Positions 36,150 to 61,900 are shown, numbered from the stretch's first letter. The stretch: 64,000 nt of DNA from Scenedesmus sp. PABB004 (GCA_014905635.1 JABVCE010000024.1:62001-126000); one strand, 5' to 3'. Program-made: numbers and translations. Notes: generated by a model from the letters alone, not told the origin.

Positions 36150-39100
36150 ATGCGGGCTGGGGCAGCCGCGCTGCTGCTGCTGGCGTGCTGCGCGGCGGCG
36201 GTGCGCGCGCAGACCTGTGGGGTGGCCATCTGCGTCACGATCGACGAGAGCGGCAGCATCGGGTCTACCAACTTCGTGAAGGTCAAGAATTTTGTGGTCG
36301 ACCTGTTCAACCGGACCAGCGCCGTGGCCAACAGTACGGCGGGCGTGCGCTGCGCACGACCGCCCGTTGCGGCCGACCAAGGGCGGGCTGGGCCGCCGCA
36401 TGCCACACGTGGAGCCCGCGTCCGCGGGCCGACCACGGGCGCCGTCCTTGAGCCGACCGCGCTCGCCCGCCCGCCCTGCCCCCCCCCCCCTCGCCCCCGG
36501 CTCGACCCGCAACAGCGTACGAGTTTGGCGCGGCCCGGTTCTCGACGGGCGCGTCGGACCTGGTCACTCCGATGACGGCCAACGCTGCGACCGCCATGTC
36601 CGCGGTCAGCAGCATGATTTACGGTGGCGGGAGCACCAACATGGTGTGCTGGGAGGGGAGAACTGCTTTAAAGCATTGTTGTTTTAGGGTGCAGGAGTTG
36701 TTATTCATGCGCGCGCCTGCGGGGGGGGGGGGGGGGGGGGCTGTGGCTCTGCTGCGCAGCGCGCGCCTGCCGCCGCGCCTCGCGCGCACTGAGCTGCCGC
36801 CGCGCCGCCGCGCTGCCCGCAGGAGGGCGGCATCGCGCGTGAGCCCTGCGCGAGCGCGCCACGGTGCTGGCCGTGCGGCGCTTGCGGAGTCCACTGATCT
36901 CACCGATGCGCGTGCCGCCGTGCGTGCGCAGGCTGCTTCAACAAGGACTCTGGCTCAGACGCCGGCATCCTGACAACCACCAGCAATGCCGCCCTGTCCC
37001 GGATCCTGGTCTTGCTCACCGGTGCGGTGGCGGCGGCAGCTGCGGCCAGGGCTGCGCGGCGCAGCGGAGCCGCGAGGGCTAGCGCCGCAAAGCGCAATCC
37101 AACGGCCAGCGGGGGGAAAGCTCTCAGCCAGCCGCCGCCTCACCACCCCGCTCCCTCCGTGCTGGCCGCCCCCGCCGCCACACGCAGATGGCAAGCCAAA
37201 CCGGGTGTATTCATCAACCCCGCCGGGCTGCTGCTCCGGTAGTACGACTTGCCAGCCGTCCGACTACATCTCTGGCTCAGACATCTCGGCATGCGCCAAG
37301 GACACCGTCACACGCAGGGGTGGGTGCTGGCGCTGCTAGCGGCTGAGCGTGCGGCGCCGCCGGGGGGCCGGCCCGCCCCCGCACCAACCGCGGCGCGCGC
37401 GCCCCCGCTCCGCCCACCCCTGCCTCTGCCTCCCTCTCTCTCTCTTACGCCCCAAGCCGCCACGGTGCGGGCCGCTGGCATCACCTTTGTCACCGTCGGT
37501 GTATCATCGGGCGTTGACGACACCTTCCTGGGAGGCCTGGGCCAGTACTACAAGGTCTCCAACTTTTCCGGCCTGGCGGCATACGTCGAGTCGGTCGCCA
37601 CGGGCGTCTGCACCGACGCGAGCGTGACCAAGGCCGTCGCATCTACATCTGAGCCGCTCGGGAACAACTTCACGTTTACGGTGACCATCACCAACACGGG
37701 CAAGTTCGACATCGCGTCAGCGGCAGCCAGCCCCATGGTTTTCACCGACACGCTGCCGTCGGGTCTCACGTTCCAGGCCGGCAGCGTCGCGCCCGGCGCC
37801 GGCAGCCCGCCAGGTGCGGGGTGGGGCGGCGGCGCTCCCCGCCGGGGCGCCGTTGGCGTGCGGCGACTGGCCCGCCGCGCCACGTGTGTGGAGGTGCAGG
37901 CTGCGCGGTGCCGTCGCACCAACGGCGGCACCACGCTGCTGTTGCGACGTGGCCGTGGCGCCCCAGCGCCTGCCTACCAGTGGGCGCTGCCAGCCCGAAG
38001 CGCCTAGCTTCTGCTGACACGCCCCTCACCCCCGTGCTGCCGTGTTGCGCGCAGCCAATTGCTCCTACACGAGTGCCACGCGCGCACTGCGGTGTTCAAT
38101 CACAAGCGGCACCCTGCCAGTGGGCGGCGCCACCTCCTGGTCCTACACGTACACCGCGGCCGCCACCACGGCCGGCACCTTCAGCGTCCCAACCGTGCTG
38201 TCACCATTCCGTGACAACAACGCGGGGAACAATTACGCCTCGTTGGCCGTGACGGTGACGGGGGCAGCCACCCCAGTCTCAGGTGCGCGTGCGCACTCGC
38301 TGCGGTCAGGCCCTGGTGGCCAGGTTGCGGCAGGCCCTGCCTGGCTGGCTGGCGTGTGCCGGCAGCAGCTGCGCACATCGCTCGCTGCAGCGCTGGGCGC
38401 GTCGGCGAGACAGCGCGCACGCTGCCCCGCAGACCCGACGGTCAGCGTGTCCCTGTCTGCGTCCACCGTGCTCATTGGGAGCAAGCTCAATGCCACAGTC
38501 ACTGTGACAAACCAGAGCCCCTCCGTTCAGGCCATCAACGTGGTCACTGAGTACACACTGCCGGCTGGGCTCGACTTTGACAACAGCACGTCGCCACCAG
38601 CCGGTGCGCGGGGTGCCGGCTCCTCCCAGGGCTGCACAGATGTGTGAAGCCGGGCGCCACTCCATGACGCGCCTGCTGCGCTGCCGCGCCGCCACGCGCG
38701 CAGGCTGCTCGGTGAGCGGCAAGGTCCTCACCTGCGCAGCCGGCAACATGTCAGCGAGCGGCAGCGCGGCGCATGTCGTCGGCCTGGTGGCCGTCCAGGA
38801 GGGCGTGTGGGACAGCGAGGCCGTTGTCGATGCGGACAATGACGGAGATGCCACCAATAACGGACCGGTGGTAGCAACGGTGACTGTCTTGGCCACGTGT
38901 GATGTGTACAACCCCGATGGCACTCGGTTTGGATGCAGCGCTGGCTCCATCTTCAACACCACGGCCGGCAGTGACCCGGGGCCTGACCAGGATACGTGCT
39001 GCGTGAGTGGCTTGCTTGGTGGGAGGGGTGGCTGCCACGCGGCAGCCAGCCAGCGCTGGCTGCACTGCGCTGCCAAGCTGCGCTCCAGCTCAAGGACATG

Positions 39101-42100
39101 CCGCCTGCCGAGCGCCAGTACCGCCGCCTCCGCCATCCCTGCTGCCGCCACGGCCGACGCCGCCACTGCCGCCACCCGCTGCCGCGCAGATTACTTGCCA
39201 GGTGTGCGCGGACTTTGTCGACCAGTGCGGCAGCTTTAACAACCTCTGCGGCGCCACGATCAACTGCACCTGCTCGGCGCCCAAGCCCTTCTGCCACATG
39301 CCCCAAACGCCGCTGCAGCCCGCGGGGCCTGGCTTCTGCTCCAACAGCTCCTTCAACCCGAGTCCCGACCTCGACGTTGCCATCACGCGCACGGTGCCGG
39401 CCGCCCCGGTGCTCATCAACACCACGTTTGACACGAACCTCACTGTGCGCGTCGTCAGCGGGCAGAGCGGCGCCAATGACGTCGTCGTGGTGGACACGCT
39501 GCCGCCGGGGCTGGTGCTCGTGTCGGTGCAGACGCCGGTCGGCACCTGCACGCCTGCTGGCTCGACCATCACCTGTGCGATCGGCGCGATGGCGCTGTCG
39601 CAGTCGGTGGTCGTGTCTGTCCGCGTGCGCGCGACGGCGCAAGGCACGCAGTCTACAAACGCCACTGTCACCGCCACGGGCGACACCGTCGCTGCCAACA
39701 ACGTCGACAGCCAGGCCATCACGGTCATCTGCGCCAGTTGCGCCTCGTTCGCCACTGCTGTGTGCGGCAACATCAGCAATGGCTGCGGCGCCACGATCAA
39801 CTGCACCTGCTCGGCGCCCAAGCCCTTCTGCCACATGCCCCAGACGCCGCTGCAGCCCGCGGGGCCTGGCTTCTGCTCCAACAGCTCCTTCAACCCGAGT
39901 CCCGACCTCGACGTTGCCATCACGCGCACGGTGCCGGCCGCCCCGGTGCTCATCAACACCACGTTTGACACGAACCTCACTGTGCGCGTCGTCAGCGGGC
40001 AGAGCGGCGCCAATGACGTCGTCGTGGTGGACACGCTGCCGCCGGGGCTGGCGCTCGTGTCGGTGCAGACGCCGGTCGGCACCTGCACGCCTGCTGGCTC
40101 GACCATCACCTGTGCGATCGGCGCGATGGCGCTGTCGCAGTCGGTGGTCGTGTCTGTCCGCGTGCGCGCGACGGCGCAAGGCACGCAGTCTACAAACGCC
40201 ACTGTCACCGCCACGGGCGACACCGTCGCTGCCAACAACGTCGACAGCCAGGCCATCACGGTTGTCTGCATCAGTTGCACCTCGTTCGCCACTGCGGTGT
40301 GCGGCACCATCAGCGATGGCTGTGGCGGCACCGTGGCCTGCACCTGCCCCTCAGACAGGCCGGTCTGCAGCCAGCCAGGCCCGCTGCAGCCGGGGTCGTG
40401 CTCTCCTCTTGTTCTGGCACAACCTGACGTTTCCATTCGCCAGCGCGCCGTGTACGCCGACCCGGCGCTCGGGTATGCGCGGACGGGGGAAGCGTTTGAC
40501 CTCTTGCTCACGGTGCAGCCAGAGAATGGCCCGGCCGGCGCGCAAGACGTGGTCCTCCAAACCACGCTGCCAGCAGGGCTGGAGCTGATTTCTGTCAACC
40601 CACGTGCGCGCGCCTCGCGCCGCGCAGCGCGGCCGCGCGGCTGCTGCGCGCTGGCCGCCCTCATCGAACTGACCGCGCCCCGCCGGCCTGCTGGCCTGCT
40701 CCAGTTGACGGCTGCGTCATCACGTACCCCCTGGTCAAGTGCACGTATGCCTCCCTGTCTGGCAGCCGTGACATCACCATCCGCGTCAAGGCCGACAGCC
40801 CCGGCACGTTCACCTGCGTGGCTGAGGTGACTGCCATAAACGACGGCAACCCTGCAAACAACAGAGACAGCGGGGTGGTTGTGGTGAAGAGGGATGTAGA
40901 CATCTCCATCACCGCGACAATGCCTAACGCCACCGTCCTTATTGGCAGCAAGCTCGACTGCACGCTTGTCGTGGCCAACCTCGGCGTGCAGCTGGCTACT
41001 GGCGTGGTTGCCAAGTACACGCTGCCGCATGGGCTGGCGTTTGACCCCAGCACCCCCCTGCCTGCAGGTGCGCGCGCGCAGGGTGCCAGGCGCTGGGTTT
41101 GAGCCCAGAACCAGCTGCACCCACGCGCAGGCCAGCTGAACATTGAGGCCGCGCTCACGCGCTGCTGCCGTGCGGGCGCAGGTTGCACCATCGTTGCCCG
41201 CCGCATTGCTGGGGCGCCCCGGGCTGCCCAGGCCGGCGGGACGCTGTCCTGCGGGCCCGGCAGCGTCCCGCCGGGCGGCAATGTGGCGTACGTCGTGGGC
41301 GTGGTGGCCGTCCAGGAGGGCTCGTGGGACAGCACGGCCCGCGTGTCAGCGACCAACGACACCAACCCGAGCAACGACGGCCCCGTCAAGCTTTCAATCA
41401 CCGTGCGCAGGACGTGCGGCCAGAACAGCGCAGACGGCGCACCCTTCACCTGCAGCAATGGCACAGCGCTCGATGCAATCCAAACCAGCAACGCGAGCCC
41501 CAGCCAGGCGACTTGCTGCGAGGTGAGCTGTCGCCTGCCAGCACTCCCTGCATGGCGCGGTGCAGGCCCCACTGCTCCTTGAACTACTCGCCCGCACTGG
41601 CCTGCGGCCGCCTGCAGGTCGCCATCACATCCGAAGGCAATAGTCGACCAGACGTCTCCATCACTGCATCCACGCTGAACACCGCTGTGCTCATTGGCAG
41701 CAAGCTCAACTGCACGCTGGTCGTGGCCAACCTCGGCGCGCTGCCGGCCACGGGCGTGGTTGCCAAGTACACGCTGCCGCCTGGGCTGGCGTTTGACCCC
41801 AGCACCCCCCTGCCTGCAGGTGCGCGCGCACAGGGTGCCAGGCGCTGGGTTTGAGCCCAGGACCGGCTGCGCCCGCGCGCAGGCCAGCTGAACATTGAGG
41901 CCGCGCTCACACGCCGCTGCCGTGCGGGCGCAGGTTGCACCATCGGCGGCCGTCGTACTGCCAGGCAGCCCAGGTCGCCCCGGGCTGCCCAGGCCGGCGG
42001 GACGCTGTTCTGCGGGCCCGGCAGCGTCCCGCCGGGCGGCAATGTGGCGTACGTCGTGGGCGTGGTGGCCGTCCAGGAGGGCTCGTGGGACAGCACGGCC

Positions 42101-45100
42101 CGCGTGTCAGCGACCAACGACACCAACCCGAGCAACGACGGCCCCGTCAAGCTTTCAATCACCGTGCGCAGGACGTGCGGCCAGAACAGCGCAGACGGCG
42201 CACCCTTCACCTGCAGCAATGGCACAGCGCTCAATGCAAACCAGGTCAATGCAAGCCCCAGCCAGGCGGCTTGCTGTCAGGTGAGCTGCCGGCTGCCAGC
42301 GCTGCCCGCATGGCGCGGTGCAGGCTCACTGCTCTATCAGCAAGCAGGCCACCACACTCGGCTCGCCCTCACGGCCCCGCTGTGCGGCTCGCAGGTCGCT
42401 GATGGCGCGCCTGACGTCTCCATCACTGCAACCACGCCCAGCGCCTCCATCCTTATCGGCAGCAAGCTCAACTGCACGCTTGTCGTGGCCAACCCAGGCA
42501 CGCTGCCGGCCACGGGCGTGGTTGCCAAGTACACGCTGCCGCCTGGGCTGGCGTTTGACCCCAGCACCCCCCTGCCTGCAGGTGCGCGCGCACAGGGTGC
42601 CAGGCGCTGGGTTTGAGCCCAGGACCAGCTGCACCCACGCGCAGGCCAGCTGAACATTGAGGCCGCGCTCACGCGCCGCTGCCGTGCGGGCGCAGGTTGC
42701 ACCATCGCTGCCCGCGCTGCTGGGGCGCCCCAGGCCGGCGGGACGCTGTCCTGCGGGCCCGGCAGCGTCCCGCCGGGCGGCAATGTGGCGTACGTCGTGG
42801 GCGTGGTGGCCGTCCAGGAGGGCTCGTGGGACAGCACGGCCCGTGTGTCAGCGACCAACGACACCAACCCGAGCAACGACGGCCCCGTCAAGCTTTCAAT
42901 CACCGTGCGCAGGACGTGCGGCCAGAACAGCGCAGACGGCGCACCCTTCACCTGCAGCAATGGCACAGCGCTCAATGCAAACCAGGTCAATGCAAGCCCC
43001 AGCCAGGCGGCTTGCTGTCAGGTGAGCTGCCGGCTGCCAGCGCTGCCCGCATGGCGCGGTGCAGGCTCACTGCTCTATCAGCAAGCAGGCCACCACACTC
43101 GGCTCGCCCTCACGGCCCCGCTGTGCGGCTCGCAGGTCGCTGATGGCGCGCCTGACGTCTCCATCACTGCAACCACGCCCAGCGCCTCCATCCTTATCGG
43201 CAGCAAGCTCAACTGCACGCTTGTCGTGGCCAACCCGGGCACGCTGCCGGCCACGGGCGTGGTTGCCAAGTACACGCTGCCGCCTGGGCTGGCGTTTGAC
43301 CCCAGCACCCCCCTGCCTGCAGGTGCGCGCGCACAGGGTGCCAGGCGCTGGGTTTGAGCCCAGGACCAGCTGCACCCACGCGCAGGCCAGCTGAACATTG
43401 AGGCCGCGCTCACGCGCCGCTGCCGTGCGGGCGCAGGTTGCACCATCGCTGCCCGCGCTGCTGGGGCGCCCCAGGCCGGCGGGACGCTGTCCTGCGGGCC
43501 CGGCAGCGTCCCGCCGGGCGGCAATGTGGCGTACGTCGTGGGCGTGGTGGCCATCCAGGAGGGCTCGTGGGACAGCACGGCCCGCGTGGCAGCGACCAAC
43601 GACACCAACCCGAGCAACGACGGCCCCGTCAAGCTTTCAATCACCGTGCGCAGGACGTGTGCCAAGTACTACGCTGACGGCACTCGGTTTGGATGCAGCA
43701 CTGGCTCCAGCTTCAACGCCACGGCTGCCAACGACCCCACGCCTGGCCAGCAGACGTGCTGCGTGAGTGGCTTGCTTGGCGGGAGGGGTGTGGCTGCCGC
43801 GCGGCAATGCTGGCTGCCAAGCTGCGCTCCCGCTCGGGCACGCACTGCCCGACAATGGTGGCGCCTGGACCAGCGCCGGTGCTGTGCCCATCCTTCCTTT
43901 CGCAGCCGCCGCCATCCCTGCTGCCGCCGACGCTGCCGCCATCGCTGTCCCGCTGCCGCGCAGATCGACTGCAAGGGTTGCGCGGACTTTGCGTCTGGGT
44001 GTGGCACCATCAGCGACGGCTGCGGTGGCACCCTCGACTGTGGCTGCTCGGGCGCCACGCCGTTCTGCCACCAGTCGCAGGCCCTCCAGGCCCTGTCCGA
44101 GTTGGGCTACTGCGACGCTGCGCCCTTCAACCCGGGGTCCAAGCTGGACGTGCTCGTGGACAAGGTCGGCCCGAGCGAGCCGGTCGAGCTCGGGTCCGAG
44201 TTCAACTTCCTCGTCACCGTGCGCGTCGTCTCCGGCCCCAAAGGCGCCAACGACGTCACCGTGGTGGACACGCTGCCGCCAGGGCTGGAGCTGGTCTCGC
44301 TGCGGACGCCGCGCGGCACCTGCACGCCGTCGGGCTCCACCATCACGTGCGCGTTTGGGAACATGGTACTGTCGCAGTCGGTCGTCGTGACGATGCGTGT
44401 GCGGGCGACGGCGAAGGGCATGCACAACACGAGCATTGCCACCAAGGCGAGCGACAGCAACCCATTGAACAACAACGCCATCCTGGGGGTGCAGGTGCGA
44501 ACTGCACCCAAATCTCTTTGAAGAAGTGCAGGGCCTGCCGCGGCGCTCCTCTCTGACTGCCAACCGCGCGGCGCAGGTGATTTGCAGCACGTGCGACAGC
44601 TTTCCCGGCCGGTGCGGCGCCATCGCCACCGGGTGTGGCACCATCCAGTGCGGCTGCCCCAGCGAGCGCCCCGTGTGCGTGCAGCTGCCAGGGGCCCCCA
44701 CCAGCAGCAGCGTGTGCAACACTCGGTCTGTCAGCCCGAGCGGGCGCGTGGACGTCGCCGTCATGGTCACCGGGCCCACCTCAGCCGTGGTGGTTGGCCG
44801 CGAGTTTGAGTTGCTGATCACTGCCACTGTCCTGAGCGGCGCGAAGGGCGCAAGCAACGTCGTCGTCACCGGTCACATCCCCGACGGTCTCGAGGTGGTA
44901 GGCGTGGTGCCTGGTGCGCGCGCACTGCGCGTCCCCCTGCGCGCGCTGCGTTCCCCTGCACGCGCTGCGTGCCCCTGGGGCTCGACACCCAGCCTGCTGC
45001 CTGGCCGGTGCACCGACTGCGTTGCCGCCGCTGCCCGCAGACGCGCAATGCACGATCCAGTACCCCTCAATCTCTTGCGCCGTGGGCGCGCTGGGTGTGG

Positions 45101-46177: not shown

Positions 46178-46680
46178 GCCCCGCCGCCTGTCAATAAGGC
46201 TTGGTAGCACACACACCAGGGTAGAGAGCATGGGGAAGGCACGTTTTCTTTGCCCCACCCAGTGCAAGGCTGTCATAAAACAGATGCAATTGCAACTTCT
46301 ATTCTCCAACTGTTTGCAGCAAAGCCCTGCAAAGACAGCGTTAAATGAACGCACGGGCTCGCTTGACGAGGTGGTGTTGTTGTCGCCAACCCTTTACCCT
46401 AAATGCTACCCCCTCTCTCGCTCTACAACGTTGTTGCATGCCTGGCTAGCTTCGGCGACCACACCTGCTGCATGTTCGTGATTGGCCTGTTGTACAACAA
46501 GCCACTCCTTGGTGGCTGGGTGATGCGGGGCTCGTCGAGCCCCGGTCTGTTGCCAGGGCTCAGCTCAGCTAGCAACGATGCCTAGCACTATCTTGGTGGG
46601 TATCGCATCAACGCATGCACTCGCATCAACGCATGCAACAACGCCACTAACCGCCGACAGTTGCAGCTCTGGCGTTGAGC

Positions 46681-46945
46681 CCCGCCAAAGACCGCGGCCA
46701 TCACGCCGCGCGCGCACCGTCAGCCGCAACCAGCAGCCTCCCGCCGCGCAGCAGGCCGACCAGCAGCGGCGTGCTGCCGCGCAGCAGCTGGCCCAGGTGG
46801 ACGCCCGCGTTGCCGCCGGCCAGCGCTGCCAGCACCTGCGCCGCGCTGGCACGCGCGGGAACAGGAGGCTGAGCAGCATCTCCAGCGTGCCAGCGCCCTC
46901 AAACACGGCCTGGTGGTGGCGCGGCGCGCCGACTGCACAGCGCGC
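46681..46945 (-). pseudogene. Dispersed ARM-like remnant, copy 2 (short, next to the duplication junction)
   Basis: Matches 62520-62820 and 49660-49980; minus strand reads HHQAVFEGAGTLEMLLSLL. Confidence 0.55.
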
Positions 46946-50901: not shown

Positions 50902-53900
50902 ATGCGGGCGTGGGCGGCCGCGCTGCTGCTGCTGGCGTGCTGCGCGGCGTCGGTGCGTGCGCAGACCTGCAAGGTGGCCATCTGCGTCGCAATCGACGAG
51001 AGCACCAGCATCACCGCCCCCAACTTCGCGTTGGTCAAGAGCTTTGTGGCCAACCTGTTCGTCCGTACCAGCAGCGTCGTGGGCAGCTCCAATTGTGCGG
51101 CGCGCGTGCGCTGCGCGGCCGGCCCGCAGCGACTGCGGCGGCGCCGCGCCGGGCGGGCTTGGCCGCCGCATGCCGCTCGTAGGACCCGCGTCCGCGGGCC
51201 GACCACGGGCGCCACTCTTGAGCTGACCGCGCTCGCCCGCTGCGCCTCCCGGCCCGCCTCGACTCGGTCCAGCGTACCTGTTTGGTGCGTCCCGGTTCAG
51301 CACGACCGCAGCCAGCTTTATCAGTCCGTTGAACAACAACATTCAGACCACCAATACCACGATACTTAACATGAATTATGCCGGCGGGGCCACCAACATG
51401 GTGTGCTGGGAAGGGGGGAGGGGAGAGGGGGAGGGGGGGCTGGGGCTCGCACGCAGTGCGCGCCTGCCGTCGCACCTCGCACACACTGAGCTGCCCCCGT
51501 GCCGCCGCGCCCCCGCAGGAGGGCGGCATCAAGAGTGAGGCCTGCGCGGGCGCGCCGCGGTGCTGGCCGTGCGGCGCCGCGGAGTCCACTGATCTCACCG
51601 ATGTGCGTGCCCCCGCCGCGCGCGCGCGCGCAGTGTGCTTCAACAAGGACTCTGGCTCGGAAGCCGGCACCCTGAGATCCAGCTCGGCCGGCACCCTGAC
51701 CCGCATCCTGGTCTTGCTCACCGGTGCGGCGGCGGCGGCGGCGCCGTCGCCGTCGTCGGCGGCGGTGGCGAGCAGGCGGCCAGCGCAGCGCAGTGCAGCG
51801 GTGCCGCGCTCCCACGGCCAGCTAAGGGCGAGCTCTCCACCCGCCGCCGCCTCAACACCACCCTCTGCTGGCCGCCCCCGCCGACGTACAGATGGCAAGC
51901 CAAACTATGTGTATAGACTCACTCCGCCGAACTGCTGCCTCAGCAACGCCACGACAGATGTTTGCCTGCCTGCCGACTACAACAGCACCACAGACGTCTC
52001 GGCATGCGCCCAGGGCACGGTCAAGAACAGGGGTGGGTGTTGCCGCTGCCGCTGCTCCGCGCGCAGCGCCGCCCGGCCCGCCCCCGCACCAACCGCGGCG
52101 CGCGCGCCCCCACTCCGCCCACCCCTGCCTCTGCCTCCCCCTCTCCCCCACGCCCCAAGCCGCCGTGGCGCGGGCCGCTGGCATCACCTTTATCAGCGTC
52201 GGCGTCTCCCCAGCCGTTGACGACACCTTCCTGGGAAGCCTGGGCCAGTACTACAAGATTGATGACTTTGCCAGCATGGCGGCACAGGTCGAAACAATCG
52301 CCACGGGGTTCTGCACCGACGCGCGCGTGACCAAGGTGGTCTCGGCGACAAACCAGACGGTCGGCGGCAGCTTCACGTTTACGGTGACCATCACCAACAC
52401 GGGCAAGTTTGCTATCGCGCCCACGGCAGCCAGACCCATGGTTTTCGCCGACACGCTGCCGTTGGGGCTCACGTTCCAGGCCGGCAGCGTCGCGCCCGGC
52501 GGCGCCGGCAGCCCGTCAGGTGCGGGGCGGGGCGGCGGCGATCCCGCCGGGGCGCCGTCGGCGCGCGGCGGCTGGCCCGCCGCGCCGCGTGTGCGGAGGC
52601 GCAGGCCGCGCGGTGCCGTCGCACCAACGGCGCGCAGCGGCGGCACCACGCTGCAGTTGCGGCGCGGCCGTGGCGCCCCAGCGCCTGCCTGCCGGTGGGC
52701 GCTGCCAGCCCGAAGCGCCTAGCTTCGACTGACACGCCCCTCGCCCCCCGCGCTGCCGTGCTGCGCGCAGCCACATGCTCCTACGACAGCGTCGCCCGCT
52801 CGCTGAGGTGCTCAGTCACGAGCGGCACCCTGGCAGTGAGCGGCACCGCCAGCACCTGGTCCTACACGTACACCGCGGCCGCCACCGGGCCTGGCACCTT
52901 CAGCGTCCCAACCGTGCTGTCCCCATTCCTGGACAACACCGCCGGAAACAACAATGCCGCAGTCCAGGTGAGCGCCGCGGCCGCCGGGAACACGCGGGCG
53001 ACCCGTTTGGGCGCACCACGCGGTCGGAGCAGCAGCAGGTGGCCAGCGACGCCGAGCTGCTGCGCTGCTGGCGGCGGCGGCGCGCTGCAGGCGCCTTGCC
53101 ACGCGCGCGCGCGCCCCGACCCGCCTGGGGCCGACCGCCCACCACGGCTGCGCGCGCAACTGACTGTTGTTGTGCGACGCCGCCGTGCAGGTGACGGTGA
53201 CGGGGGTGGCCAACACCAACACCCCAGTCTCAGGTGCGCGCGCCCGCTCGCTGCGGTCAGGCCCTGGGCAGGTTGCGGCAGGCCCTGCCTGACTGGCTGT
53301 GGCGTGTGCCGGCAGCAGCTGCGCTCGTCGCTCGCCGCAGCGCTGGGCGCATCGGCGAGACACCGCGCACGGCCGCCCCGCAGACCCGACGGTCTCCGCG
53401 TCCCTGTCTGCGTCCACCGTGCTCATCGGGAGCAAGCTCAATGCCACAGTCACTGTGACAAACCAGAGCCCCTCTGTTCAGGCCATCAACGTGGTCACTG
53501 AGTACACGCTGCCGGCTGGGCTGGACTTTGACAACAGCACGTCGCCACCAGCCGGTGCGCGGGGTGCCGGCTCCTCCCAGGGATGCACAGATGTGTGAAG
53601 CCGGGCGCCACTCCATGACGCGCCTGCTGCGCTGCCGCGCCGCCACGCGCGCAGGCTGCTCGGTGAGCGGCAAGGTCCTCACCTGCGCAGCCGGCAACAT
53701 GTCAGCGAGCGGCAGCACGGCGTACGTCGTCGGCCTGGTGGCCGTCCTGGGGGACACGTGGGACAGCGAGGCCATTGTCGATGCGGACAATGACGGAGAT
53801 GCCACCAATAACGGACCGGTGGTAGCAACGGTGACTGTCTTGGCCACGTGTGACGTGTACAACCCCGATGGCACTCGGTTTGGATGCAGCGCTGGCTCCA

Positions 53901-56900
53901 TCTTCAACACCACGGCCGGCAGTGACCCGGTGCCTGACCAGGATACGTGCTGCGTGAGTGGCTTGCTTGGTGGGAGGGGCGTGGCTGCAACGCGGCAGCC
54001 AGCCAGCGCTGGCTGCACTGCGCTGCCAAGCTGCGCTCCAGCTCAAGGACATGCCGCCTGCCGAGCGCCAGTACCGCCGCCTCCGCCATCCCTGCTGCCG
54101 CCACGGCCGACGCCGCCACTGCCGCCACCCGCTGCCGCGCAGATTACTTGCCAGGTGTGCGCGGACTTTGTCGACCAGTGCGGCAGCTTTAACAACCTCT
54201 GCGGCGCCACGATCAACTGCACCTGCTCGGCGCCCAAGCCCTTCTGCCACATGCCCCAGACGCCGCTGCAGCCCGCGGGGCCTGGCTTCTGCTCCAACAG
54301 CTCCTTCAACCCGAGCCCCGACCTGGACGTTGCCATCACGCGCACAGTGCCGGCCGCCCCGGTGCTCATCAACACCACTTTTGACACCAACCTCACCGTG
54401 CGCGTCGTCAGCGGGCAGAGCGGCGCTAATGACGTCGTCGTGGTGGACACGCTGCCGCCGGGGCTGGCGCTCGTGTCGGTGCAGACGCCGGTCGGCACCT
54501 GCACGCCTGCTGGCTCGACCATCACCTGTGCGATCGGCGCAATGGCGCTGTCGCAGTCGGTGGTGATGTCCGTCCGCGTGCGCGCGACGGCGCAGGGCAC
54601 GCAGTCTACAAACACCACTGTCAGCGCGACGGGCGACACCAACGCTACCACCAGCGTCGACAGCCAGACCATCACGGTCATCTGCGCCAGTTGCGCCTCG
54701 TTCGCCACTGCTGTGTGCGGCAACATCAGCAATGGCTGCGGCGGCACGATGAACTGCACCTGCTCGGCGCCCAAGCCCTTCTGCCACATGCCCCAGACGC
54801 CGCTGCAGCCCGCGGGGCCTGGCTTCTGCTCCAACAGCTCCTTCAACCCGAGCCCCGACCTGGACGTTGCCATCACGCGCACAGTGCCGGCCGCCCCGCT
54901 GCTCATCAACACCACGTTTGACATGCCCATCACTGTGCGCGTCGTCAGCGGGCAGAGCGGCGCTGATGACGTCGTCGTGGTGGACACGCTGCCGCCGGGG
55001 CTGGCGCTCGTGTCGGTGCAGACGCCGGTCGGCACCTGCACGCCTGCTGGCTCGACCATCACCTGTGCGATCGGCGCAATGGCGCTGTCGCAGTCGGTGG
55101 TGATGTCCGTCCGCGTGCGCGCGACGGCGCAGGGCACGCAGTCTACAAACACCACTGTCAGCGCGACGGGCGACACCAACGCTACCACCAGCGTCGACAG
55201 CCAGACCATCACGGTCATCTGCGCCAGTTGCGCCTCGTTCGCCACTGCTGTGTGCGGCAACATCAGCAATGGCTGCGGCGGCACCGTGGCCTGCACCTGC
55301 CCCGCAGACAGGCCTGTCTGCAGCCAGCCAAGCCCGCTGCAGCCGGGGTCGTGCTCCTCTCCCGTTCCCGTTCCGCCGAGCGTCGGGAACCCTGCCGTGT
55401 CCGTGCGCCAGCGCGCCGTGTACGCCGACCCGGCGCTCGGCTACGCGCGCACCGGGGAGGCGTTTGACCTCGTGCTCACGGTGCAGCCAGAGAATGGCCC
55501 GGCCGGCGCGCAGGACGTGGTCCTCCAAACCACACTGCCAGCAGGGCTGGAGCTGATTTCTGTCAACCCACGTGCGCGCGCCTCGCGCCGCGCAGCGCGG
55601 CCGCGCGGCTGCTGCGCGCTGGCCGCCCTCATCGAACTGACCGCGCCGGCCTGCTGGCCTGCTGCAGGTGGCGGCTGCGCCATCACGTACCCCCTGGTCA
55701 AGTGCACGTATGCCTCCCTGTCTGGCAGCCGTGACATCTCCATCAGCGTCAAGGCCAACAGCCCCGGCGCGTTCATGACCGTGGCCGAGGTGACTGCCTC
55801 TGGCGGGCTCACGAACAGAGACAGCAATACGTTAGTTGTTGTGAAGAGGGATGCGGGCGTCTCCATCGCCGTGACCACGCCCAGCGGCTCCGTGCTCATT
55901 GGCAGCAAGCTCAACTGCACGCTGGTCGTGACCAACCCGGGCACGCTGCCGGCCACGGGCGTGGTTGCCAAGTACACGCTGCCACCTGGGCTGGCATTTG
56001 ACCCCAGCACCCCCCTGCCTGCAGGTGCGCGCGCACAGGGTGCCAGGCGCTGGGTTTGAGCCCAGGACCAGCTGCGCCCGCGCGCAGGCCAGCTGTGCCT
56101 CAAGAGGCCGCGCTCATGCGCCGCTGCCGTGCGGGCGCAGGTTGCACCATCGGCGGCCGTCGTGCTGCCAGGCAGCCCAGGTCGCCCCGGGCCGCCCAGG
56201 CCGGCGGGACGCTGTCCTGCGGGCCCGGCAGCGTCCCGCCGGGCGGCAATGTGGCGTACGTCGTGGGCGTGGTGGCCATCCAGGAGGGCTCGTGGGACAG
56301 CACGGCCCGCGTGGCAGCGACCAATGACACCAACCCGAGCAACGACGGCCCCGTCAAGCTTTCAATCACCGTGCGCAAGACGTGTGCCATGTACAGCGCT
56401 GACGGCGCACCCTTCAACTGCACCGCTGGCACAGAGCTTGACGCAACCCAAACCAGTAACGCGAGCCCCAGCCAGGCGACTTGCTGCGAGGTGAGCTGTC
56501 GCCTGCCAGCACTGCCGCATGGCGCGGTGCAGGCTCACTGCTGCGTCAGCAAGCAGGCCAACAGGGCACCACACTCGTCTCGCCCTCACGGCCCCGCTGC
56601 GCGGCTTGCAGGTTGCTGATGGCGCGCCGGACGTCTCCATCGCCGTGACCACGCCCAGCGGCTCCGTGCTCATTGGCAGCAAGCTCAACTGCACGCTGGT
56701 CGTGACCAACCCGGGCACGCTGCCGGCCACGGGCGTGGTTGCCAAGTACACGCTGCCGCCTGGGCTGGCGTTTGACCCCAGCACCCCCCTGCCTGCAGGT
56801 GCGCGCGCACAGGGTGCCAGGCGCTGGGTTTGAGCCCAGGACCAGCTGCACCCACGCGCAGGCCAGCTGTGCCTCAAGAGGCCGCGCTCACGCGCCGCTG

Positions 56901-59900
56901 CCGTGCGGGCGCAGGTTGCACCATCGGCGGCCGTCGTGCTGCCAGGCAGCCCAGGTCGCCCCGGGCCGCCCAGGCCGGCGGGACGCTGTCCTGCGGGCCC
57001 GGCAGCGTCCCGCCGGGCGGCAATGTGGCGTACGTCGTGGGCGTGGTGGCCATCCAGGAGGGCTCGTGGGACAGCACGGCCCGCGTGGCAGCGACCAATG
57101 ACACCAACCCGAGCAACGACGGCCCCGTCAAGCTTTCAATCACCGTGCGCAAGACGTGTGCCATGTACAGCGCTGACGGCGCACCCTTCAACTGCACCGC
57201 TGGCACAGCGCTCAATGCAACCCAAACCAGTAACGCGAGCCCCAGCCAGGCAACTTGCTGCGAGGTGAGCTGCCGCCTGCCAGCACTCCCTGCATGGCGG
57301 TGCAGGCCCACCGCCATTGCTGCTCCTTGAACTACTTGCCCGCACTGGCCTGCTGCTGCCCGCAGGCCGCCGTCATGCCCGAAGACACTAGCGGGCCAGA
57401 CGTCTCCATCACCGCATCCACGCTGAACACCGCTGTGCTCATTGGCAGCAAGCTCAACTGCACGCTGGTCGTGACCAACCCGGGCGCGCTGCCGGCCACG
57501 GGCGTGGTTGCCAACTACACGCTGCCGCCTGGGCTGGCGTTTGACCCCAGCACCCCCCTGCCTGCAGGTGCGCGCGCACAGGGTGCCAGGCGCTGGGTTT
57601 GAGCCCAGGACCAGCTGCACCCACGCGCAGGCCAGCTGTGCCTCAAGAGGCCGCGCTCACGCGCCGCTGCCGTGCGGGCGCAGGTTGCACCATCGGCGGC
57701 CGTCGTGCTGCCAGGCAGCCCAGGTCGCCCCGGGCCGCCCAGGCCGGCGGGACGCTGTCCTGCGGGCCCGGCAGCGTCCCGCCGGGCGGCAATGTGGCGT
57801 ACGTCGTGGGCGTGGTGGCCGTTCAGGAGGGCTCGTGGGACAGCACGGCCCGCGTGGCAGCGACCAACGACACCAACCCGAGCAACGACGGCCCCGTCAA
57901 GCTTTCAATCACCGTTCGCAGGACGTGCGTCCAGTACAGCGCTGACGGCGCACCCTTCAACTGCACCGCTGGCACAGCGCTCAATGCAACCCAAACCAGT
58001 AACGCGAGCCCCAGCCAGGCAACTTGCTGCGAGGTGAGCTGCCGCCTGCCAGCACTCCCTGCATGGCGGTGCAGGCCCACCGCCATTGCTGCTCCTTGAA
58101 CTACTTGCCCGCACTGGCCTGCTGCTGCCCGCAGGCCGCCGTCATGCCCGAAGACACTAGCGGGCCAGACGTCTCCATCACCGCATCCACGCTGAACACC
58201 GCTGTGCTCATTGGCAGCAAGCTCAACTGCACGCTGGTCGTGACCAACCCGGGCGCGCTGCCGGCCACGGGCGTGGTTGCCAAGTACACGCTGCCACCTG
58301 GGCTGGCGTTTGACCCCAGCACCCCCCTGCCTGCAGGTGCGCGCGCACAGGGTGCCAGGCACTGGGTTCGAGCCCAGGACCGGCTGCGCCCGCGCGCAGG
58401 CCAGACGCGCCTCAAGGTCGCGCTCACACGCCGCTGCCGTGCGGGCGCAGGTTGCACTGTCGCCGTCCGCAGTGCTGCCGGGTCGCCCCGGGCTGCCCAG
58501 GCCGGCGGGACGCTGTCCTGCGGGCCCGGCAGCGTCCCGCCGGGCGGCAATGTGGCGTACGTCGTGGGCGTGGTGGCCGTTCAGGAGGGATCGTGGGACA
58601 GCACGGCCCGCGTGACAGCAACCAACGACACCAACCCGAGCAACGACGGCCCCGTCAAGCTTTCAATCACCGTGCGCAGGACGTGCGGCCAGAACAGCGC
58701 TGACGGCGCACCCTTCAACTGCAGCGCCGGCACAGAGCTTGACGCAACCCAGGTCAACGCAAGCCCTAGTCAAGCAACGTGCTGTCAGGTAAGCTGCCGC
58801 CTGCCAGCACTCCCTGCTTGGCGCGGTGCAGGCTCGCTGCTGCAGCCACCTGCTGCTGCACCTTGAACTGACCCGCACTGGCCTGCTGCCCGCAGGTCGC
58901 CTTCGCGCCCGAGGTCACTGGCGCACCGGACGTCTCCATCGCCGTGACCACGCCCAGCGGCTCCGTGCTCATCGGCAGCAAGCTCAACTGCACGCTGGTC
59001 GTGGCCAACCCGGGCGCGCTGCCGGCCACGGGCGTGGTTGCCAACTACACGCTGCCGCCTGGGCTGGCATTTGACCCCAGCACCCCCCTGCCTGCAGGTG
59101 CGCGCACGGCCATGCGCTGGGTTTGAGCCCAGGACCGGCTGCGCCCGCGCGCAGGCCAGACGCGCCTCAAGGTCGCGCTCACATGCCGCTGCCGTGCGGG
59201 CGCAGGTTGCACTGTCGCCGTCCGCAGTGCTGCCGGGTCGCCCCGGGTTGCCCAGGCCGGCGGGACGCTGTCCTGCGGGCCCGGCAGCGTCCCGCCGGGC
59301 GGCAATGTGGCGTACGTCGTGGGCGTGGTGGCCGTTCAGGAGGGCTCGTGGGACAGCACGGCCCGCGTGACAGCGACCAACGACACCAACCCGAGCAACG
59401 ACGGCCCCGTCAAGCTTTCAATCACCGTGCGCAGGACGTGCGGCCAGTACAGCGCTAATGGCACTCGGTTTGGATGCAGCACTGGCTCCAGCTTCAACAC
59501 CACGGCTGCCAACGACCCCACGCCTGGCCAGCAGACGTGCTGCGTGAGTGGCTTGCTTGGCGGGAGGGGCGTGGCTGCAATGCGGCAGCGCTGGCTGCCA
59601 AGCTGCGTTCCCGCTCGAGCACGCACTGCTCGACGGTTCTTCCTTGCCAAGCGCCGGTGCTGCGGCCATTCTCCCTTTTGCAGCCGCGGCCGTCCCCGCT
59701 GCCGCCGACGATGCCGCCGCCACTGCCCCACCCGCTGCCGCGCAGATTGACTGCAAGGGCTGCGCGGACTTTGCGTCTGGGTGTGGCACCATCAGCGACG
59801 GCTGCGGTGGCACGCTCGACTGTGGCTGCTCGGGCGCCACGCCGTTCTGCCACCAGTCGCAGGCCCTCCAGGCCCTTTCCGAGTTGGGCTACTGCGACGC

Positions 59901-61900
59901 TGCGCCCTTCAACCCGGGGTCCAGCCTGGACGTGCTCGTGGACAAGGTCGGCCCGAGCGAGCCGGTCGAGCTCGGGTCCGAGTTCAACTTCCTCGTCACC
60001 GTGCGCGTCGTCTCCGGCCCCAAAGGCGCCAACGACGTCACCGTGGTGGACACGCTGCCGCCAGGGCTGGAGCTGGTCTCGCTGCGGACGCCGCGCGGCA
60101 CCTGCACGCCGTCGGGCTCCACCATCACGTGCGCGTTTGGGAACATGGTACTGTCGCAGTCGGTTGTCGTGATGATGCGTGTGCGGGCGACGGCGAAGGG
60201 CATGCACAACACGAGCATCGCCACAAAGGCGAGCGATGACAACCTATTGAACAACAAGGCCATGGCCGCGGTGCAGGTGGGTGTCGCATCCAGCTCTCCC
60301 AAGATGGGAGCAGCGCAGGGCCTGCCGCGGCGCTCCTCTCTGACTGCCAACCGCGCGTCGCAGGTGATTTGCAGCACGTGCGACAGCTTTCTTGGCCGGT
60401 GCGGCGCCATCGCCACCGGGTGTGGCACCATCCAGTGTGGATGCCCCAAGAAGCGCCCCGTGTGCGTGCAGCTGCCAGGGGCCACCAGCAGCAGCGTGTG
60501 CAACACGCGGTCTGTCAGCCCGGGCGGGCGCGTGGACGTCGCCGTCATGGTCACCGGGCCCACCTCAGCCGTGGTGGTTGGCCGCGAGTTTGAGCTGCTG
60601 ATCACTGCCACTGTCCTGAGCGGCGCAAAGGGCGCACGCAACGTCGTCGTCACCAGTCGCATCCCCGACGGTCTGGAGGTGGTGGGCGTGGTGCCTGGTG
60701 CGCGCGCATGCCCCTGTGCGCCCCTGCGCGCGCTGCGCGTGCCCCTACATGTGCTGCGTGCCCCCGCGCGCTCGACACCCACCCGGCCCGCTGCCGGCCG
60801 GTGCACCGACTGCGTCGCCGCCGCTGCCCGCAGACGCGCAATGCACAATCCAATACCCCTCAATCTCTTGCGCCGTGGGCTCGCTGGGCATGGGCGAGAG
60901 CTTCTCCCTCAGGGTGCACGTCAAGGCGACGCGCGCCGGGTCCTTCTCCAGCAGTGCCACGGTCAGCGCGACCGCCGACGCCCAGAAAGCCAACAACCGC
61001 TACGACGTGAGAGTCACCGTGGTCAACGGCGCGTGCTGTGCGCCCGATCGGGCCTGCCGGCTGGTCGATGAGTCTGCGTGTGTTGGCACCTACATGCCTG
61101 GCCAGGCGTGCGACAGCGCAACTTGTAGGCTCGTGCCGGCTGCGCTCCCCCTCGGCGCGTGCTGCGACGTGCAGCGCGGCCAGTGCTCGGTGATGGCCAG
61201 GGCCAGCTGCGCGTCAGGCGCCGCCTGGTCGCAGGGTGCCAACTGCACCTTGGACGTCTGCCCGCAGGCAGTAAGTGGCGGCTGAGCGCCGCGCGCGCGC
61301 CGCGCGCCGCTTGTCCTTTTGGCCCTGGTGGCCAGTTCGCGCACACAACTGCTGACGTGCGGCGTCCCCGCCCCCCTCCCGCAGGCGTCCCCGCCCCCCT
61401 CCCCGGCCCCCTCCTGCACGCCGGACTGGCGCATGTGCACGCCGTCTGTGGGAAACGGCTCCAACCCCTGCTGCAATCATCCCACGAGCGCGTGCATGCC
61501 CGTGCAGGGCCTGACAACGCGCTGGTACGCCTGCACGCTGCTCGGCGAGGCCTGCCACGGTGAAGGCCAGGCCTGCGGCTCGTGCCCCGGTGGCGCGTCA
61601 TGCTGCGACGGGCTCACCTGCAAGTGGGACCACAAGCACGGCGGCAACGGCGTGTGCACAAAGCCGTTCACGTGCGCCCAAGACGGCGCGTCCTGCGCCG
61701 CAGCGGAGGACTGCTGCCCCGGCTCCACCTGCAGCTCCGACGGCCGGTGCCGTCCGTGCGACTGCGACCGACGGTGCCACAAGCACGACAAGGCGTGCGA
61801 GGCGGAACGCGAATCAGAGTGCAAGAGCCTGTCTGCGGTTGTTGCAAGCGCCGTCCTGCCCGGCCCGGGCGGCGCCATCATCCAAGTGCGGGGGGCGTGA
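50902..61900 (+). CDS. Giant secreted adhesin-like glycoprotein, paralog 2: signal peptide, vWA (MIDAS), 12 DUF11/Ig-like modules, Cys-rich linkers and C-terminus
   Basis: MRAWAAALLLLACCAASVRA; IDESTS..GGATNM..LLTDGKPN; same module order as paralog 1 with one extra stalk unit; stop 61900. Confidence 0.85.
54199..55290 (+). repeat. 537-bp exonic tandem duplication x2 in paralog 2
   Basis: Two near-identical CTCSAPKPFC..DLDVAITR..TTSVDSQTITVICASC units. Confidence 0.93.
55850..59440 (+). repeat. ~760-775 bp exon+intron tandem array x5 in paralog 2
   Basis: GGCAGCAAGCTC anchors at ~55901, 56675, 57444, 58213, 58974. Confidence 0.93.

Follow-up and report, generated by a model that had tools for sequence, protein, structure and literature searches.

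The window, a 64,000-nucleotide stretch of DNA from the very GC-rich green alga Scenedesmus sp. PABB004, contains two tandem paralogues, g1 and g2, both on the plus strand (Table 1). With a truncated kinase duplicate between them, they fill the region from 36150 to 61900, where an earlier note had placed a pair of adhesin-like proteins; the region opens with an ATG at 36150 and closes with a stop codon at 61898-61900. The unit that has been duplicated comprises the 3′ part of the kinase and one adhesin-like gene. The splice models were refined through homology between modules and paralogues, and their exon borders are predictions. In these models all 46 introns are GT..AG, in agreement with the spliceosomal introns noted earlier, measure 82-251 nt and share one consistent donor and acceptor consensus, and the protein modules are complete only once spliced. 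Retention would break the frame for 36 of the 46 introns. The other ten are in frame and stop-free, so that only homology and splice signals speak for their removal. Between g1 and g2, exons and introns have similar identities, so conservation does not single out the exons.

Table 1. Genes and features in the window (positions counted from its first nucleotide).
Feature	Position	Strand	Details and basis
Tandem segmental duplication	33097..61924	none	33097-46201 against 47160-61924, 79-90% nucleotide identity (self-BLASTN)
g1	36150..46177	+	23 exons, 22 GT..AG introns, 2360 aa; splice-aware dynamic-programming model
g1 exons 1-12	36150-36333, 36516-36643, 36823-36838, 36932-37021, 37188-37319, 37457-37813, 38055-38282, 38433-38603, 38704-39002, 39190-40603, 40705-41067, 41182-41522		
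g1 exons 13-23	41618-41819, 41934-42280, 42395-42581, 42696-43021, 43136-43322, 43437-43762, 43964-44494, 44577-44913, 45041-45228, 45346-45594, 45698-46177		
g1 signal-peptide-like N-terminus	36150..36209	+	aa 1-20; read from translation
g1 vWA-like head	36213..37617	+	aa 22-237, 6 exons; Pfam, PDB, motifs, alignment with paralogue P0044
g1 MIDAS motifs	DESGS 36243-36257; GGSTNM 36626-36643; LLTDG 37012-37192	+	LLTDG across an intron
g1 stalk	37585..45204	+	11 DUF11/CLIPPER modules; HMM built from modules
g1 modules	37585-38233, 38252-38861, 39343-39702, 39880-40239, 40411-40862, 40869-41378, 41621-42139, 42269-42880, 43010-43621, 44117-44476, 44721-45204		
g1 GACC exon	45346..45594	+	two GACC Cys-rich repeats
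g1 tail exon	45698..46177	+	Cys-rich, includes stop codon
Kinase duplicate	47250..49274	+	truncated duplicate of upstream protein kinase, between g1 and g2
g2	50902..61900	+	25 exons, 24 GT..AG introns, 2586 aa; predicted splice model
g2 exons 1-13	50902-51094, 51273-51400, 51519-51534, 51634-51723, 51892-52032, 52160-52519, 52771-52967, 53191-53233, 53384-53554, 53655-53953, 54143-55571, 55668-56024, 56141-56490		
g2 exons 14-25	56612-56798, 56915-57264, 57366-57567, 57684-58033, 58135-58336, 58451-58788, 58896-59097, 59206-59543, 59746-60276, 60364-60697, 60834-61270, 61385-61900		
g2 vWA-like head	50965..52320	+	aa 22-243; Pfam on exon 1, motifs
g2 MIDAS motifs	DESTS 50995-51009; GGATNM 51383-51400; LLTDG 51714-51896	+	
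g2 stalk	52288..60997	+	12 DUF11/CLIPPER modules; HMM built from modules
g2 GACC repeats and tail	61013..61900	+	GACC repeats 61013-61270; Cys-rich tail exon 61385-61900

Both genes are already deposited under this organism, as 'hypothetical protein' and 'drkD', in mis-spliced form and placed on a 539,907-base contig. The deposited g1 (P0200, 'drkD') has the same ATG as our model and is identical across 2170 aa; the deposited g2 (P0001) is identical across 2243 aa and is without the first exons. With their 46 spliceosomal-type introns, an algal contig and an adjoining duplicated eukaryotic kinase, g1 and g2 are eukaryotic coding sequences, two tandemly duplicated nuclear genes of predicted structure. 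Ka/Ks between them is 0.97 in the head, 0.54 in the early stalk and 0.21 in the tail (last 250 aa), and the head value near 1 could reflect relaxed constraint rather than diversification.

Domain architecture of the two proteins

Both proteins begin with the signal peptide-like N-terminus described earlier, MRAGAAALLLLACCAAAVRA followed by Q and MRAWAAALLLLACCAASVRA followed by Q, as read from the translations of the two genes. In both, the motifs DES[GT]S, GG[SA]TNM and LLTDG then follow one another as in vWA domains, at aa 32, 99/102 and 137/140, and supply the residues DxSxS ... T ... D of the complete MIDAS that the earlier note had recognised, with positions assigned by reading the motifs. 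Scanned as a single exon against PF00092 (cut-off 23.8), exon 1 reached 22.9 bits in g1 (E 1.1e-4) and 19.4 bits in g2 (E 1.3e-3), and no vWA match in Pfam came from the remaining head exons scanned singly. Among PDB entries, which are biased towards eukaryotes, the best match of g1 exon 1 was the collagen VI alpha-2 vWA (E 1.6e-7), and its other leading matches were likewise eukaryote-type vWA domains, from MIC2 (E 0.08-0.17), factor B and integrin. The head is accordingly termed vWA-like here, from these exon 1 matches, just under the Pfam cut-off in g1, and from the motifs. GG(S/A)TNM and LLTDG are conserved in the paralogue P0044, whose head (aa 1-175) gave no Pfam, PDB or database match and a weak language-model lead to VWA clusters (score 0.87). 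The C-terminal two thirds of the head, in the P0044 version, matched nothing in the PDB or among proteins of 96-307 aa. In g1, a Cys-rich insert lies C-terminal to LLTDG.

The stalk comprises 11 modules in g1 and 12 in g2, the numbers given in the earlier note, as counted by an HMM made of the modules themselves. Their membership of DUF11, a family treated as a stalk domain (PMC9210967), is strongly supported. PF01345 matches exon 39190-40602 in three stretches with 119.4 bits (E 1.2e-34; cut-off 24.6), gives half-module matches on split exons, and scores 410-413 bits on the deposited models P0001 and P0200 (E 8e-125 with 11 stretches and E 1.3e-125 with 10); TIGR01451 matches exon 37459-37812 with 37.7 bits. 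The modules align end-to-end with 20 bacterial modules at 25-39% identity. An AF2 model of 39190-39876 (pLDDT 87.6, with 87-98 in the module blocks; pTM 0.72) predicts the CnaA-like Ig beta-sandwich fold of DUF11/CLIPPER domains. In Foldseek its top PDB match (E 2.7e-8; target TM 0.78) is 9ifr, the only solved CLIPPER domain, with integrin alpha stalk domains and pilins next; a profile search also found 9ifr_A (E 1.1e-4).

Many, though not all, DUF11 domains carry an isopeptide triad of Lys, Asp and Asn (CLIPPER paper). With triad columns assigned by alignment and the Lys equated with chain position 10 of 9ifr_A, none of the 23 window modules has the strict triad and two (g1 module 10 and g2 module 11) have it with the Asn one column off, against 26/30 modules from paralogues and 189/211 from bacteria. 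The triad has thus been lost in nearly all modules of g1 and g2. A conserved mid-module Cys pair is present in 23/23 window modules; its two positions are kept in 190/211 and 192/211 bacterial modules.

Cys makes up 5.3-5.7% of residues in the two proteins, and small Cys-rich spacers interleave with the DUF11 modules. Linker A (CG...GCGGT..C.C), an 8-Cys knot that corresponds to the linker motif listed in the earlier note, occurs five times in each gene; linker B (TC..DG..F.C..G....CC), a 4-5-Cys knot, occurs five times in g1 and six in g2. Two GACC repeats per gene lead into the Cys-knot-like tail, both of them elements recorded earlier. This tail, of about 160 aa, is conserved across all paralogues and has knottin-like spacings and a hydrophobic C-terminal end in g1; the last 20 aa of the proteins are moderately hydrophobic. 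The last two exons of g1 and g2 have no Pfam or NCBIfam match, nothing recognisable as a wall anchor, transmembrane segment or sorting signal (LPXTG, OmpA-like, T9SS) was identified, and the fold model of the tail is unreliable (pLDDT 47).

Relatives and origin of the stalk

Besides g1 and g2, the genome encodes at least five DUF11 proteins that carry the spacers and tail described above. P0044 is the one with a vWA head, which is partial, and the head of P0002-P0005 is of another kind; spacers, GACC repeats and tail are common to all of them, at 45-58% identity. The 'pair' of the earlier note is therefore a pair within the window but not in the genome. An exhaustive phmmer search gave 3278 matches, and of the best 150, those with more than 5% Cys or linker A were all proteins named Scenedesmus sp. 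PABB004. Twenty relatives were looked up by name: one is Scenedesmus sp. PABB004, and seven of the 19 others have an organism name, all bacterial and from several different bacterial groups. A tree of 53 algal and 211 bacterial modules places the algal ones with each other and needs only 2 label changes, against a shuffled mean of 48. No vWA domain was found in the 20 best bacterial relatives scanned (0/20) or among the 62 listed matches (41 + 21) with precomputed Pfam.

These sequence comparisons point to a bacterial affinity of the stalk. The head-on-stalk combination appears to have been put together in the alga and not acquired as a unit, since the vWA is eukaryote-type and absent from the bacterial relatives scanned; of the 'prokaryote-style parts' named earlier, the description fits the stalk but not the head, whose best PDB matches are eukaryote-type. 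It is plausible that the stalk came horizontally from a bacterium and was later intronised and joined to this head. The possible horizontal origin raised in the earlier note thus gains from the organism-named relatives and the module tree, but neither these nor the other relatives examined yielded a donor lineage. We infer the direction and age of such a transfer. GC3 is 0.84-0.85 in g1 and g2 against 0.905 in 304 nearby kinase codons, only slightly lower, so composition lends no support to a recent event.

Contamination by bacterial DNA, or misassembly of a bacterial adhesin gene into the algal assembly, would suit a domain that is otherwise prokaryotic, and the CLIPPER survey, which places DUF11 in bacteria and archaea, set its eukaryotic matches aside as likely contamination. 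The intron structure contradicts it: the 46 GT..AG introns follow one consensus and interrupt modules that are whole only after splicing. With GC3 host-like, a eukaryotic kinase duplicated jointly with the gene and Cys-rich spacers found in no bacterial match examined, its probability is negligible. Vertical inheritance, or a family widespread in green algae but unsampled or unannotated, would require no horizontal transfer. It is consistent with intron-rich genes of host-like codon usage, and the window's deposited models are so badly mis-spliced that similar genes elsewhere could be missing or fragmented in protein databases. Moreover, the best 150 of the 3278 phmmer matches were inspected and the clusters of the search collection conceal relatives above 50% identity, so other algae may hold members. 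Against this, no other alga occurs among those 150 or among the 41 + 21 matches listed from a collection drawing on NCBI nr, a metagenome scan with the family-specific tail matched nothing but a knot motif of 35 aa in an unrelated protein rich in Cys, and the survey's range for DUF11 is prokaryotic; we consider vertical inheritance improbable. The earlier note had named two outcomes that would speak against its own reading, modules that do not match DUF11 and a known, vertically inherited green-algal family; instead, Pfam matches were obtained, and no other alga with the architecture appeared in the searches run. The genes of this system, called undescribed in the earlier note, were already deposited.

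Proposed function and comparison with known adhesins

We favour, as probable, a reading of the two tandem genes as encoding secreted, glycosylatable, disulfide-rich fibre proteins built like a microbial fibrillar adhesin. The signal peptide would target the protein for secretion, the N-terminal vWA with its complete MIDAS would form a tip that binds ligand via a divalent cation, and the 11 or 12 CnaA-like modules, spaced by the linker A and B knots, would form the stalk. The two GACC repeats and the conserved tail may serve to attach the protein to the wall or matrix or to cross-link it there. Covalent stiffening, if any, would come from disulfides, since hardly any module retains the isopeptide triad. 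Most likely, an ancient transfer from a bacterium brought the otherwise prokaryotic stalk family into this algal lineage, where it acquired introns, expanded by duplication of exon pairs and became joined to a vWA head of eukaryote type and to algal Cys-rich modules. An adhesion, recognition or matrix role is suggested by this architecture. The observations of the earlier note are confirmed and its interpretation is partly supported.

A structural role in the matrix or wall is a less likely but appreciable possibility. The vWA heads would then self-assemble with matrix proteins, as in collagen VI or matrilins, and stalk and tail would form a disulfide-linked network such as sheath or intercellular colony material. 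The collagen VI matches of exon 1, the high Cys content, a conserved tail under purifying selection and the many paralogues with different heads all fit such fibres, although a head Ka/Ks near 1 is more in keeping with ligands that change than with an assembly interface that stays fixed. Fibre and adhesin share a mechanism, a vWA head binding on a stalk, and the present data do not distinguish between them. A giant receptor kinase with a vWA-DUF11 ectodomain, made of g1 and the downstream kinase fragment as one gene ('drkD'), is very unlikely. P0200 does join ...AVIQ (46162) to a kinase exon at 47810 on the same strand. However, the kinase is cut by the duplication breakpoint at 47160; it keeps LVTEY, HFDLK, DFG and APE but lacks the Gly-loop, VAVK and HPN motifs carried by the upstream copy, and the Pkinase profile matches the fused model at positions 107-258 only. 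Neither a transmembrane exon nor, after it, a complete kinase domain is seen at g1, and g1 and g2 both end ...IQVRGA-stop, with no kinase behind g2.

As adhesin-like proteins, g1 and g2 look like a real eukaryotic copy of the microbial fibre-adhesin design, with a DUF11 stalk otherwise seen in bacterial and archaeal surface adhesins here encoded by intron-rich algal genes. They have the N-terminal adhesive-type domain and tandem Ig-like stalk of fibrillar adhesins; a bacterial or archaeal host is missing, as is a known surface anchor or sorting domain in the last two exons (Pfam and NCBIfam). CLIPPER-stalk adhesins such as Acinetobacter silvestris B9T28_05395 (PDB 9IFR) share the signal peptide, the N-terminal adhesive-type domain, the long tandem stalk, the module fold and the Cys pair. 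In contrast to these, the algal genes are eukaryotic with 22-24 introns, have Cys-rich spacers and a vWA head, have lost the triad in 21-23 of 23 modules, and encode a Cys-rich tail in place of an OmpA-like, LPXTG, T9SS or transmembrane anchor.

Among metazoan proteins, the match of exon 1 to collagen VI vWA covers its first strand, helix and DxSxS loop, and integrin alpha-X is a weaker match; this homology is limited to the vWA domain, and neither collagen parts nor an integrin propeller is present. The resemblance of the stalk module to integrin alpha thigh and calf domains, on which it superposes, is at the level of fold only (8-16% identity). Chlamydial OmcB (Chlam_OMP6), like other Cys-rich envelope proteins with DUF11, has a DUF11-type fold in a Cys-rich envelope setting, but differs in size and architecture; P0044 has a weak Chlam_OMP6 match below the cut-off (E 0.001), and the window's exons have none at E <= 1. 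Apicomplexan TRAP and MIC2 are also eukaryotic secreted adhesins, in which a disulfide-rich repeat stalk bears an N-terminal MIDAS vWA. Their repeats are of the thrombospondin type and their transmembrane tail is linked to a motor, whereas the algal proteins have a DUF11 stalk and no visible membrane span. Gram-positive pilus tip adhesins of the RrgA type carry a vWA on CnaA/CnaB stalk domains and so share with the algal proteins a vWA binding domain on an isopeptide-type Ig-like stalk. In the RrgA type the vWA sits within a stalk domain and sortase polymerises the protein, whereas the algal vWA is N-terminal and its stalk is one long chain. A figure legend of the CLIPPER paper names vWFa inserts in CnaA/CnaB folds.

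Gene models of the duplicated locus

On the + strand, stop-to-stop translation reveals long repeated coding stretches interrupted by short segments that start with GT and end with AG. We modelled the two neighbouring adhesin-like paralogues, g1 and g2, with our own splice-aware dynamic-programming predictor, which scores codons by log-odds trained on the long exons and splice sites by weights refitted to the first-pass models. Adjustment of three junctions by homology turned the first-pass models of 2378 and 2615 aa into the refined models listed in the table, which share 86% protein identity. All 46 introns in these predicted models are GT..AG and span 82–251 nt, with donors mainly GTGCG or GTGAG and acceptors mainly GCAG, bearing out the earlier note's claim that spliceosomal introns interrupt both genes. 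Retention of 36 of them would shift the frame or add a stop; removal of the other 10 is based on splice signals and homology only, and exon versus intron conservation between g1 and g2 gave no discrimination. Introns 1 and 2 of g1 carry long C and G homopolymer runs (~36480–36490 and 36721–36741).

Features of the two adhesin-like genes and their surroundings
Feature	Position	Strand	Remarks
g1	36150–46177	+	23 exons, 2360 aa; predicted splice model
g2	50902–61900	+	25 exons, 2586 aa; predicted splice model
TKL-like protein kinase, complete	32060–35226	+	upstream of g1; all motifs
Kinase motifs	Gly-loop 32060, VAVK 32397, HPN 32792, LVTEY 33199, HFDLK 33758, DFG 34192, APE 34423	+	
5′-truncated kinase duplicate	47250–49274	+	between g1 and g2; starts at LVTEY (47250)
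Dispersed repeat copies	29070–29632, 49650–50215 (inverted), 49637–50047, 62495–62891; also 25196–25680, 28451–28934		

Self-comparison places both genes in a tandem segmental duplication (33097–46201 versus 47160–61924, 79–90% identity), the breakpoint of which (33097/47160) cuts the kinase. Dispersed repeats of 400–600 bp with 85–95% identity, one copy inverted, flank the duplicated units and may represent a mobile element or a recombination substrate for the duplication. At the start of the window, 42–558 matches itself at a 75-base offset with 81% identity, which points to a degenerate tandem array.

Both deposited models at the locus are wrong, and their errors conceal the head domain, which is whole in neither. 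The largest exon, used as a database query, found P0001, the g2 model ('hypothetical protein HT031_005627 [Scenedesmus sp. PABB004]', NCBI name), which lies on g2 at 98–100% identity and is identical to our first-pass g2 model over 2243 aa; it starts within the head (MEGGIK...) and differs in five exons. P0200, the g1 model from the same organism, came from a second search under the name 'drkD'. It begins with the ATG at 36150 and matches g1 without a difference across 2170 aa; head exons 2, 3 and 5 are left out, and the model continues into the downstream kinase fragment by joining the g1 end at 46162 to the truncated kinase at 47810 across a 1.65-kb gap. The deposited 'drkD' model would make this protein a receptor kinase. 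The duplicate that it reaches lacks the ATP-binding N-lobe motifs, and Pfam on the 31 stop-to-stop ORFs at 46.5–50.8 kb gave one weak kinase match; the kinase region was read from a motif search and the deposited model. We regard the receptor-kinase reading as unlikely and the 'drkD' model as probably an annotation chimera.

Bacterial contamination is the other alternative, and the CLIPPER survey deems eukaryotic DUF11 matches probable contamination (bioRxiv 10.1101/2025.04.25.650565, PMC12617251). For these intron-rich genes it is unlikely. The 39.8-Mb Scenedesmus sp. PABB004 assembly is put at 78.5% GC in a genomics paper (PMC12571836), which fits the window (68–84% in 2-kb bins, with the minimum over g1 and g2). 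Across 36001–47000 and 50001–62000, GC runs 5–10 points under the flanks (0.68–0.73 versus 0.73–0.84), chiefly at codon positions 1 and 2, an effect of protein compositions enriched in T, S, N and V. Composition was also considered as a signal of transfer and rejected, as the gap in GC3 (0.84–0.85 in g1 and g2 versus 0.905 over 304 kinase codons next door) is too small.

A DUF11 stalk with cysteine-rich spacers

The DUF11 identity of the stalk modules is beyond doubt. The exon at 39190–40602 matches DUF11 (PF01345) in three stretches (E 1.2e-34), exons that hold half a module match half the profile, and the deposited models P0001 and P0200 score E 8e-125 and 1.3e-125. An HMM made from the modules themselves counts 11 in g1 and 12 in g2, as the earlier note had proposed. 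For structural comparison, we aligned a linker A–module–linker A unit (39190–39876) with three units from the window, two from paralogues and 20 bacterial modules, to which it is 25–39% identical. The AlphaFold2 model of this unit (pLDDT 87.6, pTM 0.72) is most confident over the module (87–98, versus 63–84 in the spacer). Its best Foldseek match is 9ifr (E 2.7e-8, target TM 0.78), followed by integrin alpha stalk domains, TTHA1873 and pilins, and the sequence profile of the unit also matches 9ifr_A (E 1.1e-4). According to its report, 9ifr comes from a fibrillar adhesin of a Gram-negative bacterium and is its CLIPPER domain, CLIPPER being the new name for DUF11 (bioRxiv 10.1101/2025.04.25.650565, PMC12617251).

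Two kinds of Cys-rich spacer separate the modules. Linker A, with eight Cys (C..C..F...CG....GCGGT..C.C), occurs five times in each gene; linker B (TC....DG..F.C..G......CC) occurs five times in g1 and six in g2. Every linker-B module carries two introns in common positions, one of phase 1 after ...PLPAG and one of phase 0 after the spacer CC; the modules therefore multiplied along with their introns. Two GACC repeats and a ~160-aa tail with knottin-like Cys spacings follow the last module. The Cys-rich linkers, GACC repeats and knot-like tail were all rightly noticed at the outset. Cys makes up 5.3–5.7% of residues in g1 and g2, which carry 38–49 N-x-S/T sequons.

GACC-like repeats may be common in Planctomycetota. 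The GACC repeats here had no match in Pfam or NCBIfam, a language-model search placed them nearest to Planctomycetota hypotheticals, with a score (0.76) under the usable level, and none of 36 pattern matches in prokaryote genomes was confirmed. The tail, modelled by AlphaFold2 on a five-row alignment, reached pLDDT 47, too low for use, and a metagenome scan confirmed 1 of 90 pattern matches and no family relative. The confirmed match is a 35-aa CCDGLTC knot motif in an otherwise unrelated Cys-rich ORF with no DUF11 nearby: an 816-aa frame on contig L001 (4882–7332, +, 48.7% GC) with repeated CGNG.C..GETA.NC..DC units and one such knot.

The candidate vWA head

Exon 1 of g1, scanned singly, aligns with Pfam VWA positions 2–33 at 22.9 bits (E 1.1e-4), just under the cut-off of 23.8, and exon 1 of g2, likewise scanned singly, gives E 1.3e-3. 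Against the PDB, exon 1 best matches the vWA domain of collagen VI alpha-2 (E 1.6e-7), with weaker matches to collagen VI alpha-3 and alpha-1, MIC2, factor B and integrin alpha-X, all spanning the first strand, DxSxS loop and first helix. GG(S/A)TNM and then LLTDG follow downstream in vWA order, also in a third paralogue, P0044; the remainder of the head is divergent and holds a Cys-rich insert. Residues 1–175 of P0044 gave only chance-level PDB matches and none among proteins of 96–307 aa (E up to 10), and a language-model search with this head pointed no more than tentatively to VWA clusters (score 0.87). Because the exon 1 matches and ordered motifs stand beside this P0044 result, we grade the vWA head as supported, not proven. 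The MIDAS described earlier as complete holds as a reading of the three motifs, within a putative domain.

Between g1 (aa 1–245) and g2, the heads (36150–37640 versus 50902–52340) are far more diverged than the rest, with Ka/Ks 0.97 and Ks 0.28, and keep their MIDAS motifs despite this divergence. Over the whole proteins Ka/Ks is 0.52; the early stalk has 0.54 and the final 250 aa 0.21. Selection at the binding end, whether diversifying or relaxed, would account for the head. As read from sequence, the proteins are built like a fibrillar adhesin or a fibre of the matrix: predicted to be secreted, they would bind through a cation-dependent head carried on a stiff Ig-like stalk, with a conserved Cys-rich foot. 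These genes are a eukaryotic variant of a known microbial fibre design.

Relatives, origin and the isopeptide triad

At least five further paralogues carry the organism name Scenedesmus sp. PABB004, and P0044 and P0002–P0005 all share the tail (45–58% identity). In P0044, a partial vWA head precedes nine DUF11 modules; P0002–P0005, on other contigs, have a different N-terminal repeat head (GTMWSCD...NSC..NKAGS), 5–8 DUF11 modules and 1–8 GACC motifs. In one deposited model of this second subfamily (AGO3), probably an annotation chimera as well, a Piwi domain has been fused on.

An exhaustive phmmer search of 1.84 billion representatives returned 3278 matches; among the best 150, a Cys content above 5% or linker A occurs only in Scenedesmus sp. 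PABB004 proteins. Of 20 top matches looked up, one is the alga, and all seven of the other 19 that carry an organism name are bacterial (Bacillota, Rhodothermales, Actinomycetota, Parabeggiatoa, Solirubrobacteraceae, Pedobacter), as are further organism-named relatives among the matches listed. A VWA domain was found in none of 20 bacterial relatives scanned, the other domains of which include subtilase, metallophosphatase and CBM96. A FastTree phylogeny was built from 53 algal modules and 211 bacterial ones, the latter limited to the best module of each protein, with P0001, P0200 and P0004 omitted as redundant. It required two label changes versus a shuffled mean of 48 and is poorly resolved; a single origin of the algal modules would be compatible with it. 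The accessible DUF11 literature (PF01345/IPR001434/TIGR01451; algae; horizontal gene transfer, eukaryotes) describes no algal DUF11 protein, and the available text of an S. obliquus cell-wall proteomics paper mentions neither DUF11 nor von Willebrand (PMC11839794).

The observation of a giant adhesin-like pair is confirmed and its first interpretation partly supported: 'prokaryote-style parts' describes the stalk, with its bacterial affinities, and not the head, the visible affinities of which are eukaryotic. The scenario we favour is an old transfer: a DUF11 repeat gene of bacterial affinity would have entered the algal lineage and then acquired introns, linker-B modules and introns would have multiplied together, and shuffling with host modules would have followed. 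DUF11 in intron-rich algal genes, with family-wide multiplication, an added eukaryote-type vWA head and re-engineered disulfide-rich spacers, would illustrate clearly how a eukaryote has domesticated a prokaryotic surface-fibre module. It also supplies candidate wall, matrix or adhesion proteins in the green-algal lineage Scenedesmaceae, whose wall proteins are, to our knowledge, little characterised.

Many CLIPPER domains carry an isopeptide-forming Lys/Asp/Asn triad, the columns of which we located by alignment with the 211 bacterial modules, 189 of which have it. The paralogues keep it in 26/30 modules (P0044 8/9, P0002 7/8, P0003 7/8, P0005 4/5) and because of this may form intramolecular isopeptide bonds in the eukaryotic secretory pathway; such bonds are, as far as we know, so far accepted only in bacteria and archaea. 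The strict triad occurs in none of the 23 window modules. With the triad gone from nearly all modules, g1 and g2 would rely on disulfide-knotted spacers inserted between modules. We suggest, tentatively and with more doubt than conviction, that the algal family is the first genuine eukaryotic use of CLIPPER/DUF11 stalks and records a switch in stalk stiffening from triad to disulfide-knotted spacers. Isopeptide-competent and isopeptide-dead forms of the same fold would coexist in one genome and invite a natural comparison. Allowing Asn to sit one column off brings in g1 module 10 and g2 module 11 and no others; Arg replaces Lys in modules 3 and 4, the linker-B modules are without all three triad residues, and a central Cys pair is present in all 23.
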